Part shown: positions 50,892 to 59,447 of the stretch, piece after piece
How positions within the stretch are numbered: the first letter of the stretch is position 1
Layout: every line of letters begins with the position of its first letter
NCBI GenBank assembly: GCA_000965745.1
Contig: CP009479.1
Span: forward strand, 1,248,001 to 1,312,000
Origin: an uncultured archaeon
Lineage (GTDB): Archaea; Thermoplasmatota; Thermoplasmata; Thermoplasmatales; Thermoplasmataceae
DNA length: 64,000 bases
Direction: 5' to 3'
Notes under the pieces: model-generated
Told to the model about the DNA's origin: nothing
Database searches by the model: none
The model's input: only the letters and a program-made list of their open reading frames with translations
Program-made: the position numbers and the translations under genes

Positions 50892-51151
50892 TCATAAGGG
50901 ATTTCAACGATCAGGTTGCATACCACAGAGAAAGGGCCTTAACAGCCGTCTCCAATGACTTCAGGAACGCGACTAGCGAGTTGTGGACCTACATCAAGCT
51001 GAGCGGGAAGGCTACCCACGAGGAGCTGATGTATGTCACCACTGAAGAGAAGTCTCAGGAATATCTGAAAAAGGTGGTGAAATCATACCAGGGCTCCTGG
51101 CCTATTTACAATTCTAACGTGAAGGGCTTGATCCAGGAGGTGCGTGGATGA
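50888..51151 (+). CDS. 87-aa element protein absent from the ORF track (CTG start)
   Basis: GGGGGTGG SD, CTGA overlap with the upstream stop, open to TGA overlapping the helicase ATG (ATGA). Confidence 0.55.
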   Translation: MIIRDFNDQVAYHRERALTAVSNDFRNATSELWTYIKLSGKATHEELMYVTTEEKSQEYLKKVVKSYQGSWPIYNSNVKGLIQEVRG

Positions 51152-51559
51152 GCGATATCACAGGCAGTCTGCTACACAGGGGCTCCTCAATCACTCCGGT
51201 TGAGATCGAGCCGGGGAAAATAAAATTATCCGATCTCGAACAGAGGAACATTATAATTGGCCGGCCTGGCACAGGGAAGACCACAACCTTGAAGGAAATC
51301 ATCGGGGAGTTCCTGAACAGGGGGAACTCACCATCCGAGCTTCTTTACCTCACATACAGCAGGGCAATGGCCTCAGACGCGAGAGAGAAAATCGGGCTGA
51401 AAAGGCACCAGGCAGGGACCATACATTCTATTTTTTCCATAAAGCTGGGCTGGAGGCACTCAAAGAACCCGAACAAATCCGCGTTTCTTTCTGACAAAGA
51501 TATGAGCGATTTCGCAGAGGAATACGGGATCAGGAAAAAATTCAAGGCAAGGCCCAGGG
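51148..51559 (+). pseudogene. Truncated UvrD/Rep-family helicase (N-terminal part)
   Basis: GRPGTGKTT Walker A, YLTYSRAMA motif Ia, GTIHS motif Ib; similarity ends near 51560 where intron sequence begins. Confidence 0.8.
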
Positions 51560-51850
51560 AAGAGCACGGAAACACTCATCAAGGAGCTCAACGTCCTCGT
51601 AAGAAGATGGACAGACTACTTTAATCATGCGACAAGGCAGTACGAGAGCCTCCAAAACTTTGTCCGCTGGAAGGTCTCAAAATTTTACTGCGACTTGCAC
51701 AAGATTCCACGAGTCTCTAAAAGAAAGGAGTACGTAGGTATTGCGGCTACCTCCGGTTTAATAAGAATGGCAAGTAGGAGATCCTATCCATACACCGCAT
51801 GGTGAAGCACACCGGAAAGGCGTATTCGGAAAAATCGACCGTACGGTTTG
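51560..51850 (+). pseudogene. 3' remnant of an outer group II intron: maturase domain X plus domain V
   Basis: Frame 51560-51805 reads KSTETLIKELNVLVRRWTDYFNHA...LQNFVRWKV, homologous to the inner KSEDDVIRELDQLTIGWTNYYNHS...LWNFLCWRL; DV-like hairpin 51817-51849 with triad AGG. Confidence 0.85.
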
Positions 51851-53798
51851 GCACGCCGAGGAATACATATAATCAACCAATGTAAGTTTGGTACTGGAAA
51901 TTGCTGGTTTATCCAGTTAGCTACCAACGCAGTTAGTGGGGTGATCTACTGGCTGAAGTTGTTGGGATGCGAACCTGCAAGCCGTAGCGAGAGCGAACAC
52001 GATGTAGCACCGAGAGGTGTAGGAGGGAAGGCCGAAGATGTCGAACCGGCCTGAAGGCTATCATCGCATGGGAAGAGAACCAGAGGGCCATGCGGCTTCC
52101 CCGGTGTTTCAGTGGCGGCGGGCAGCGAAGGCCATGTGGGATAACTCGGGAGAACACACGGCGTCCTACCGTATTCATGGGGAGAGAATAGAGAGCTCTA
52201 ATGCGAGCCAATATTCGGGATACGAGCAGGTAGCCGGACCTATAACCCAAAAGGGAAATGGAGGCAATGCGCCGTGTGTAGTCGGAGTGGTTCATAGTAC
52301 TTATGACAGTGGGGACAGCATAACCTCACCAGAGGGAAGGGACCATACTCGGAACACGATCGTTCACAACCCGGGAGAGACCCATTCCCGAAAGGGTAGG
52401 AGGTCATAGCATGCTCGAAGGGTTGCAGGACGGTCTCTACCGGAGGGCTAAGGAAAACAAGGATGCTAGATTCAACACGCTCCATGACAAGATATACAGA
52501 ATGGACGTGCTGCAAGAGGCATGGAGACTGGTATGGGAAAACAGGGGATCGGAAGGTGTAGACAACCAGACGCTTGATGACATAAGAGAAGAAGGGATAG
52601 AACAACTGCTTGAACAGATACAGCATGAACTCAAAACAGGCACCTACAGGGCATCATGTGTCAGGAGGGTATTCATCCCGAAATCAAGCGGAAAACTCAG
52701 GCCGCTCGGTATACCAACAGTCAAGGATCGCATAGTGCAGCAGGCAGTTAAGTTGATCATTGAGCCCATATTCGAAGCAGATTTCTTGGAATTCAGCTAC
52801 GGATACAGGCCAAACAGATCGGCAAAAGACGCCTCTCTAGAAATATACAAGTGGCTCAACTACGGTCTCACCAACATAGTAGACGTCGATATAGAAGGCT
52901 TCTTCGACCACATAGATCATGAGCTTCTCCTCAAATTCGTGAAGGAAAGGGTCACGGACGGATACATACTTTCACTCATAAAACAGTGGCTCAAGGCGGG
53001 CATAGTATACGGAAAATCTGTGACAAATCCAACGGAAGGCACGCCTCAGGGGGTGTCATTTCTCCGTTGATTGCAAACACATATCTCAACAAGCTTGACC
53101 ACGCATGGGCTGAGATGAACATGGACAGCAATACAGGGCACAATGCGCACCTGATCAGATACGCGGATGATATTCTGGTGTTGACAGACGATGCACGCTC
53201 CTTCACCTTCAGTGGAAAGAATCACGCAAGGAACGTCATGAAGATCCTCTGGATGCTCGTAGGGAAGCTGAAGCTCAAATTGAGTGAAAGCAAATCCCGT
53301 ATAACAACCGCAGAGGAAGGTTTTGATTTCCTTGGGTTCCACTTCCTCAGGAGGTACTGGGAGAGATACGGAAAATGTGTATCCAGATTCTTCCCGTCGA
53401 AGAAATCTGAACTTAATTACAAGGCAAAGGTGAGTGAGATCACATCAAGACGACACGCGCACACAAAGAGCGAGGATGACGTAATCAGGGAATTGGACCA
53501 GCTCACAATAGGCTGGACAAACTACTATAACCACAGCCATGCATCGGAAACGTACGCAAAGCTCTGGAATTTCCTCTGCTGGAGACTAACGCAGTTCATC
53601 AGGTACAGGCACAAGCGCCGTAGCCTCGCTGTGGATTACGTCAGGCTGCGATCCTATGGCCTCATGCCCCCATACGGAAGAATAAGGCATAATTATACCG
53701 TGTGCCCACGGTGAAGTTCCCCGGATAGCCGGATTCGGGAAAACTGACAGTCCGGTTAGAGGCGGAAGGGTCAGGAGAAATCCTGATCTTTACCCCAC
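51851..53798 (+). mobile_element. Group II intron (inner) with RT/maturase and no endonuclease domain
   Basis: DV 53726-53758 (AGC triad), DVI ending TTTACCCCAC with bulged A; 5' end inferred at GCACG followed by CCGAG pairing with CTCGG at about 52145; 5' boundary less certain. Confidence 0.85.
52411..53714 (+). pseudogene. ltrA: Group II intron reverse transcriptase/maturase, frameshifted in a G run near 53050
   Basis: RPLGIPTVKDRIVQ, SYGYRP, DIEGFFD, GTPQG/GVISP split, RYADD, GFDFLGF, domain X. Confidence 0.93.
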
Positions 53799-53894
53799 GG
53801 GAACTGGAAATGGAGTCAGAGGATAACCGCAATGACTGGTTGTCATGGTATTGTTAGGAAACTCTGTGACCACTGCACTTGCTCTATACTCGAC
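53799..53894 (+). ncRNA. Probable domain VI and 3' end of the outer group II intron
   Basis: GGGAACTGGAAATGGAG...stem...CTATACTCGAC resembles a long DVI with a branch A 7 nt from an AC end. Confidence 0.55.
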
Positions 53895-56882: not shown

Positions 56883-58347
56883 CCTGACTTTCTCCTATCT
56901 TTTATACACTAGGTTCCTGATCTCCTCCTGTTTCTTTGACAGTTCAACATTTGCACCCCACTCCATGCCGGATTCAGAATCTTTCAGCTCAACCCTGTAC
57001 CCATGGCTAAGGATGTCAAGTGCATCCGATCCGGAGATTCCTGTCTTTTCTATCCTGTACTGCAGTGTCGCAAGGATGGCGTACGAGAGATAGCAGATCT
57101 TTATGTGCGCATTCACGTGGGAGAGCATCCAGAACCTCACTGGCCTTAGGGACAGTATGCCCTTCATCTGTTTGAACGCCCTCTCCACCACATTCTTGGC
57201 ATAGTATTTTTTCACAACATCCGCATCTTCCATGCCTGTGTTGTGATATATGAGCGAATATCCCAACAGGGACGCGATTTCCTCATCCTCAGAGTGATCG
57301 TAATAATGCTCCCTCCTGATGGATTCAAGATACGGATTGTACACAACAATGAGTTTTCCGGACAGGAAGTCCATGGATTGCGTATAGACATGCGTGTTTC
57401 GCAGCTCGATGCGATTTCCCTTCCTGTATACCCTGCTTTTGTCGATCTTGAGCAGAATGTCCCTGAAACTCTTATTCTTCACGACGCCGCATATTATCTT
57501 CATGCGAAGCTCAAGTGCATCATCTATATTCTTCCGGGAATAGAAGCCACGGTCCAGGATGACTGCTGAATAGCCCTTCTCCTTCAGCAGTGAGATCATC
57601 TCCCTGTACATTCGTTTTCCGGAGATATTTCCTCCGTGCGTGCGGTGGAAGAGCGGAAAACCATGATCCTCTGTGACAGCAAGGGCGATCTGCACCAGCT
57701 TCTTCACCTTCTCCTCCTTGCCCCTGCGTGCCTTGCCTTCAATGCTGTCACCTTCGAAATATGTGTCTGTTACATCGATTATGACTGCATTCCTGTCATC
57801 AATGGACGAGAAGATTCCTGACAGTGATTCCTCCATCCTGGAGAAATCCATCTCATTCAGGGTGTCCAGGGAATCGTAAAGCCTTGCTGTACTTGTGGCT
57901 TTGATGCCAAGGATATCAAGCATGTCCGTGTATGAGAGCCACTCCTCCATCCTGTTGATCGACGGACGATCAAGAAGCTGCGAATACACAAGGATCAGGA
58001 TCTCACTGTCGAGACTGGTGATTCCCAGATCAGAGGCGATCCTGTGGATTATTTCAATGTCAAGATGCTTCCGGACTGCCTGTACCTGTACGGAAGAGGA
58101 CATGATCCTCCTGACCACCTCTCCCTCAACGTCCTTGCCTATGTACCTGATGACCTTCTGCCTGGTTCTGCCATTCTCCCACACAGATTCCACCTCGGCA
58201 AGATATGTCCCTGAAGGCTTCTTGATCTTCCGTATGAAGGACATGATGTATAAGATATACATCATGCAGTTATTAAAGCTATCTACAATAAAGCAGTGAA
58301 TAACAAGGTCACAAAGCATGATGTATAAAATGGGTCAAAAACTTAGG
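56883..58347 (-). mobile_element. Complete IS1634-family-like insertion sequence
   Basis: Imperfect IRs CCTGACTTTC / CCTAAGTTTT; 6-bp target duplication TAATGA at 56877-56882 and 58348-58353. Confidence 0.85.
56895..58244 (-). CDS. DDE transposase (IS1634-like)
   Basis: MSFIRKIK...YLAEVES, IDVTDTYFEG, LDRGFYS, VERAFKQMK..L.LRP, AHIKICYL. Confidence 0.88.
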   Translation of the reverse strand: MSFIRKIKKPSGTYLAEVESVWENGRTRQKVIRYIGKDVEGEVVRRIMSSSVQVQAVRKHLDIEIIHRIASDLGITSLDSEILILVYSQLLDRPSINRMEEWLSYTDMLDILGIKATSTARLYDSLDTLNEMDFSRMEESLSGIFSSIDDRNAVIIDVTDTYFEGDSIEGKARRGKEEKVKKLVQIALAVTEDHGFPLFHRTHGGNISGKRMYREMISLLKEKGYSAVILDRGFYSRKNIDDALELRMKIICGVVKNKSFRDILLKIDKSRVYRKGNRIELRNTHVYTQSMDFLSGKLIVVYNPYLESIRREHYYDHSEDEEIASLLGYSLIYHNTGMEDADVVKKYYAKNVVERAFKQMKGILSLRPVRFWMLSHVNAHIKICYLSYAILATLQYRIEKTGISGSDALDILSHGYRVELKDSESGMEWGANVELSKKQEEIRNLVYKR

Positions 58348-58466: not shown

Positions 58467-59339
58467 GTGCTGAATCCAAAACAGGGAGAGGTCAACACAT
58501 ACTTCCAGAAGAGGATAAGAGACACATCACTTTCAAAGACCACGATCATAGCTGAAGTGAATGATCTCAGACTGTTCTGGAATGGATACCTTGAGCTAGG
58601 AATAAAGCTCCTTCCGTTAAAGACACCTCCAGAGAAGGACGTATGGATACCAACTGACCAGGAGGTTATCAGGATAATGAAGGCAGCGGAGCATTCAAGC
58701 GCTGACAAGGGAATAGCGCTCAGGAATTCACTGATCACCAGGATGTTCTTCCTCGGCTGCATGAGAGTTGGGGAAATGATGAGGATCCGCTTAAACGACG
58801 TAGATTTTGAGTTGGGCGGTGTCAATATCAGGTCAGAAAAGGGTGAAGCTGATCGTTTTGTCGGTTTCCATCCGGACATCTTGAAAGACCTGAAAACTTA
58901 ATTGAATGTTTACAGACCCCGCACTACATTCACTCAGCTCTGGATCGCGACGAAAAAGGGAAAAACCCAGAGTTCTGTGGAGCCTATCACCTACGCTGGG
59001 CTTCGGAAGCTATCCAAGGTCATGGGGCTTTCCGCAGGCGTGACCCAATTCCATTGGCATGCTGCGAGGCACTGGGGCGCAACAGCCTATCTATATGGGC
59101 GTCTGGGAGTACCACCGTTGGGAATCAGATCGGTTCAAAAACTTCTCGGTCATGTGTCATTAAAGACGACTCAGAGGTATACTCACGTCACAGACAGGGA
59201 CGTTGCAAAAGAGGTGATATCCGCGCAAAGAAAATTATTTCGCGGGCATGAAAAAAATGAGGGATTAAGGGGCGTGAAAGCCCCTATACCGAACCCTATG
59301 GGGCTGACCGGGTTTGAACCGATGACCACCTGGTTATGA
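58467..59339 (+). pseudogene. Tyrosine integrase with in-frame nonsense codon at 58899-58901
   Basis: GCMRVGE (R), KG, HAARH (HxxR), LLGH and TTQRY; the two ORF-track pieces are contiguous in one frame. Confidence 0.9.
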
Positions 59340-59372
59340 GCCAGGCGCTCTACCTAGCTGAGCTACAGCCCC
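59299..59372 (-). tRNA. tRNA with CAT anticodon, probably tRNA-Ile(CAU)
   Basis: GGGGCTG acceptor stem, CCTGG-CTCATAA-CCAGG, A73; lacks initiator features; Ile versus elongator Met is an inference. Confidence 0.9.
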
Positions 59373-59374
59373 AG

Positions 59375-59447
59375 CGCCGCTGGTCGGATTCGAACCGACG
59401 ACCGCTCGGTTAACAGCCGAGTGCTCTACCAGCTAAGCTACAACGGC
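59375..59447 (-). tRNA. tRNA-Asn(GTT)
   Basis: GCCGTTG...CTCGG-CTGTTAA-CCGAG...GTTCGAATC; 2 nt upstream of the CAT tRNA. Confidence 0.96.

Follow-up and report, generated by a model that had tools for sequence, protein, structure and literature searches.

A clade of group IIB introns in Thermoplasmatales that very probably targets the DV/DVI junction of other group II introns

An intron nested at the 3' end of a decayed domain V

Between positions 51560 and 53894, the window (the whole stretch of DNA that was analysed, 64,000 nt in length) carries one group II intron within the remains of another, the helicase fragment and all parts of the nest being on the forward strand. The N-terminal fragment of a UvrD/REP-like helicase gene (51148-51560; Pfam AAA_19 and UvrD-helicase above cut-off, residues 30-100) comes first, with a frame that enters intron sequence, the gene having been cut off by the same deletion as the 5' part of the outer intron. 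The outer intron itself is represented by a domain X remnant of its IEP, a C-terminus free of internal stops located by tblastn (51554-51805; 56% amino acid identity to the second intron of the genome and 62% to P0112-type proteins), and by its domain V (DV; 51815-51850). This DV is 91% identical at the nucleotide level to the DV region of the second intron of the genome, matches Rfam Intron_gpII below cut-off (22.4 bits), and has its catalytic triad changed from AGC to AGG (51818-51820). Its last bases, GGTTTG (51845-51850), are the IBS1 of the inner intron and form five Watson-Crick pairs and one wobble with the EBS1 of that intron.

The inner intron is 1948 nt long (51851-53798), its boundaries being set by alignment to relatives and by the Rfam D1D4-6 match. 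It contains an Id3 stem-loop (52031-52058) with the EBS1 CGAACC at 52042-52047, an RT/maturase ORF lacking an endonuclease domain (52411-53714; TIGR04416 matches on both halves, on either side of a frameshift at ~53050-53054), a DV with an intact AGC triad and a U-A pair at T53726/A53758 (53724-53759; fold z=-4.0 for DV+DVI), and a DV-DVI linker followed by a short DVI and the 3' splice site (53760-53798), in a form shared by every clade member. Its 3' exon is an orphan long DVI without its 6-7-nt linker (53799-53894), the ends of which match the long DVI of ORF-less-type introns (L182, L255). The preliminary description had proposed a full-length intron directly 3' of the DV of a decayed intron, and we find each of its features (IBS1, intron start and end, CGAACC, T53726/A53758, DVI-like segment) where it had placed them, with a junction exactly at the DV 3' end; the loss of about 6 nt of linker at the 3' junction is also real (6-7 nt). 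The locus is contiguous, with zero differences, in contigs of two public runs, which probably stem from the source sample and hence are not independent.

The nest lies in a probable integrated element, a region with an IS1634 transposase (56895-58319) and a tyrosine integrase gene (58467-59447, split by a stop at ~58901) that adjoins two tRNA genes. The viral contigs searched gave no match.

The inner element is a group IIB intron

Several features establish the inner element as a real group IIB intron. Rfam group-II-D1D4-6 (RF02005) matches it at 51883-52116 with 72.3 bits, for a cut-off of 49. Its 5' end is GCACG rather than the GUGYG consensus, but this start is supported by the second intron of the genome and by relatives, which begin with GCACG or GCGCG, making it a lineage trait. 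The DV of intact relatives passes RF00029 at 42-46 bits; the inner DV of the window is absent from the Rfam matches, and the MFE fold of domain I alone is uninformative (z=-0.28). The IEP, at 434 amino acids, has no endonuclease domain, as in En-minus IEP classes (C, D, E, F, g1-g6); intact relatives carry RVT_1 and GIIM only.

The RT/maturase is intact in P0001, P0128, and P0143. In contrast, both introns of the window are dead or crippled, because the inner RT is frameshifted (a 1-nt deletion relative to L185, within the PQGG codons) and the outer intron is 5'-deleted, with a mutated triad. In most of the clade (P0001, P0002, P0004, P0128, P0139, P0143, and P0150), the RT active site is YSDD instead of YADD; it is YSDE in P0003, FADD in P0007, and YADD in the window copy.

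Besides the window nest, the genome holds one intron (C1:712540-710643; L175, L001), which belongs to the same broad family, has an intact ORF and the same GCACG start, and sits a few bases upstream of a transposase-like ATG, its EBS1 (CCCCAA) matching the G-rich flank. The organism is probably a Thermoplasmatales archaeon, as one protein encoded by a genome of the same family is identical to a protein named from E-plasma.

EBS1 lies in the Id3 loop

CGAACC had been put forward as a putative EBS1. Among 11 relatives, all four upper pairs of the Id3 stem show compensatory change, the stem of the window copy being partly degenerate. Across 14 introns, the hexamer directly 3' of the conserved loop U pairs with the final six nucleotides of the 5' exon, with a loop-flank pairing score of 74 against a permuted mean of 32 (reached in 0 of 100000 permutations; p<1e-5). 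Stem covariation and loop-flank pairing thus identify CGAACC as EBS1, in the Id3 loop as proposed, and position 51851 as the 5' splice site. The equivalent test for an EBS2-like pairing gave p=0.05-0.16. An EBS3 that seemed assignable by eye was rejected after a position-by-position test, in which the first base of the 3' exon had no consistent partner anywhere after Id3.

Recurrent insertion at the DV/linker boundary

The RT of the inner intron falls in a clade of nine proteins, window copy included, with 100/100 support. Members were found by protein search and their contigs were then fetched for flanking sequences; the loci retrieved by look-up for P0142 proved unrelated and were set aside. 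The 5' flanks are DV ends, cut at the same nucleotide, in six of the seven distinct cases (the window, L185, L211, L187, L193, and L194), so that homologues do sit at DV 3' ends, as had been predicted, as long as close homologues are considered. The sole exception, L191, is a sister with a different EBS1 (UGGAUU) that perfectly matches its own non-DV flank, and it was therefore retargeted. The 3' flanks consist of linker and DVI in nine distinct loci besides the window (L163, L229, L185, L187, L192, L194, L199, L227, and L240). At L163, the closest genome match (75% amino acid identity), the linker and DVI of another intron come directly after the insertion. The 3' flank of one clade member (L186/L228) is not a DVI. 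In these counts, L194-197 and L187-190 each figure once and the 5' half of L227 is left out as a chimera; the contigs are mostly short and metagenomic, some are chimeric (L199, L227), several apparently come from one ENA series, and kin are not independent.

Outside the clade, a linker follows the 3' end in 0 of 89 loci, and a DV is cut at the corresponding distance in 0 of 134 loci (one being an intact tandem intron), a background count sensitive only to similar DVs since the profile missed the true host DV of L194. A one-off event, first suggested by distant homologues at unrelated sites, was rejected: these homologues lie outside the clade and have other EBS1s. The site is the DV end, not RYADD codons as in the M.a.I5 type.

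Recombination or misassembly between DV copies, instead of insertion, could be invoked for this arrangement, given that chimeras exist (L227, L199, L240) and that the two flanks of the window look like different families. We regard this as extremely improbable. The product of DV-DV recombination should read DV+DVI+DVI, whereas here a DV directly meets, at its IBS1, the intact 5' end of an intron. Moreover, contigs read through the window locus, and removing the intron from L185 rejoins the host precisely, restoring DV+DVI folding like that of an intact intron. L187 and L194 also refold to two hairpins once the inner intron is removed; the rejoined host of the window has no canonical fold.

By DV, DVI, and domain X, about five host types can be distinguished, including one with an L173/L257-like DVI in L192, and EBS1 changes along with them: CGAACG faces CGTTCG and GGAACG faces CGTTCC, both perfectly, and CGAACC faces GGTTTG. 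Pairing is imperfect at two DV sites (two mismatches in L193, one in L187), both copies being decayed. A single ancestral insertion that was then inherited, or that moved as part of a composite element, would suit the similar host family of L163, L229, L185, and L240, but the diversity of hosts and the matching EBS1 changes already largely refute it, and it is highly improbable as the origin of all nests. As judged by comparison of the loci, insertion has recurred at the DV/linker boundary in about five host types, with EBS1 tracking the host DV. Endonuclease-less group IIB introns of the acidophilic Thermoplasmatales, forming a small clade, thus very probably target the DV/DVI junction of other introns through EBS1.

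This target had been described as near-universal. In a set of 133 collected DV ends, biased toward RT relatives, the EBS1 of the window finds no mismatch with 98 (15 perfect matches and 83 with wobble), in line with that description, but the sister EBS1s CGAACG and GGAACG match none of the 133. Broad target potential is thus restricted to the EBS1 of the window, the sister variants being tuned to local DV variants.

Origin of the 3' flank of the window

The preliminary description had the inner intron part the DV of a single host from its DVI. An inner intron does lie between a DV and a DVI-like segment, but the two flanks resemble different families: the remnant on the upstream side is most similar to the short-DVI family that includes the second intron of the genome, whereas the downstream DVI resembles the long DVIs of ORF-less-type introns. 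Because of this difference, and because 6-7 linker bases are missing, the upstream DV and the downstream DVI probably derive from different host introns. A search of 169 genomes of the order gave no close relative of the outer intron combined with the downstream long DVI. The 5' junction is precise; for the 3' flank, we propose either a later rearrangement or a hybrid host as its source. The 3' junction may have arisen through a deletion of 6-7 nt, through recombination of two inserted copies with each other, or through the collapse of two tandem short DVIs, by which a third intron became exposed.

Do the introns avoid their own DV?

The U-A pair at T53726/A53758, which was held to discriminate self from target, is real and correctly positioned. 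Its role as a discriminating mark is not supported, as it also occurs outside the clade (L082, L164, L172, L165, and L216), and three of these introns (L082, L164, and L172) are at unrelated sites. The DV ends of other clade members are TGTTTG or GGTTTG. A broader version, in which the clade also evolved avoidance of its own DV through fixed DV changes that spoil pairing with its EBS1, is possible but doubtful. None of the four EBS1/own-DV combinations reaches the pairing of a perfect target (5.0, 5.0, 3.5, and 4.5 of 6), the clade has two different derived DV ends, TGTTTG is found in 0 of 133 outside DVs, and no self-nested copy was seen. However, self-nests would be unstable repeats and difficult to assemble, the U-A pair is common to non-clade introns at unrelated sites, and the P0001-type EBS1 pairs with its own DV over all six positions, two of them wobbles and none a mismatch. 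L193 sits at a two-mismatch site, the DV can be exchanged by recombination (L240), and the clade-type DV core is also present in host-family introns (L219, L215, and L226). L180, another host-family intron, carries this core as well.

Mechanism and exchange of DV/DVI modules

The position of the insertions, the identity of EBS1, its covariation, the recurrence of the nests, and the lack of an endonuclease domain are established by these comparisons; the clade is a candidate for mobility, the window copy itself being frameshifted. By analogy with known retrohoming, the RNP would reverse-splice into the DV/linker site, probably while the DNA is single-stranded at a replication fork, and reverse transcription would follow. 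The conserved ribozyme core of rivals may thereby offer a renewable, usually non-essential landing site. Unless splicing of the inner intron comes first, the host DV would be parted from its DVI, and the host would be inactivated.

Alternatively, targeting could take place at the RNA level, through reverse splicing into host intron transcripts and recombination of the cDNA into the chromosome. The target is another transcribed ribozyme, the IEP has no endonuclease, and all nests are sense-oriented, as this route would have it, yet IBS1 is base-paired within the DV helix of folded RNA, DNA retrohoming likewise requires sense orientation, and replication forks are where known En-minus introns home into DNA (PMC4424553). 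We therefore consider the RNA route improbable and retain retrohoming into DNA.

After insertion, DV-DV homology could promote recombination, leaving the host with the DV and DVI of the invader ahead of its own DVI, that is, with an exchanged module. L240 (2290-2440; G105:C8) has the arrangement expected of such recombination, with a host domain X, then an invader-type DV+DVI, then a host DVI. One may further imagine an arms race between introns on the catalytic core, with the DV end as target. Hosts and invader would escape by switching DV base pairs, EBS1 would change in turn, and resistant DV/DVI modules would pass from family to family by DV-DV recombination; we see this as rather unlikely.

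Comparison with known nested introns

Introns that parasitize introns are already known, at protein-coding sites. M.a.I5, UA.I3, P.l.I2, and B.th.I3 use the catalytic RYADD motif in the RT of other introns or retroelements as their insertion site, and nested intron arrays occur in Methanosarcina acetivorans (PMC2504315, PMC4424553). Like the M.a.I5 type, which includes archaeal examples, the clade described here specialises in one conserved motif of other group II introns and gains a perpetual homing site through the formation of twintrons. The M.a.I5 type targets protein-coding sequence in domain IV, whereas the target here is the DV/DVI junction of the ribozyme, a site shared by ORF-less and distant introns, where insertion splits the catalytic hairpin from the branch point.

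In Thermosynechococcus elongatus, TeI3 (F3) lies in TeI4 (F1), forming twintrons (PMC2882425). Both systems show independent, recurrent insertion into a single site of another intron and retargeting by EBS change, but the TeI4 site lies between two ATGs in DIV, a single host family is involved, and the inner intron is ORF-less. The Euglena gracilis psbF twintron has a group II intron within the DV of another (PMC8393795), as here; it is a single, fixed chloroplast event between degenerate introns, and neither a targeting lineage nor EBS1 covariation is described in PMC8393795. Class C (IIC) introns insert after terminator hairpins (PMC4424553, PMC8919778) and resemble our clade in being endonuclease-less and inserted 3' of a hairpin-forming sequence. 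Unlike them, our clade has a IIB-like RNA, and its specificity follows the pairing of a 6-nt EBS1 with the 3' strand of the stem itself.

In the literature searched, mainly reviews, we came across no lineage described as directed at the DV/DVI junction. ORF-less introns and distant relatives are both within reach of such a lineage, which can also disable rivals and provides a route by which families could swap DV/DVI modules and acquire tandem 3' splice sites. With intact members and natural pairs of EBS1 and target at hand, retargeting, the order of twintron splicing, and self-avoidance can be tested directly. As standard pipelines discard twintrons (PMC4028801, PMC8919778), similar lineages may be undercounted.

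Other composite arrangements were observed in the dataset. In L185 (2332-2455), two tandem DVIs follow the invader. Just ahead of the second one stand the final four bases of an L168-type DV, which points to a third intron, interrupted within the 3' strand of its DV. An ORF-less group II intron is nested in domain I of an L167-type intron (L182; G076:C26). In L227 (1-330), the 5' end of an intron lies inside the 5' end of another, itself within an RT ORF, and the 3' half of this chimera comes from the DV-targeting clade. Finally, head-to-tail tandem introns with an intact DV+DVI upstream of the next copy are found in L169/L176 (G118:C37) and in L074.
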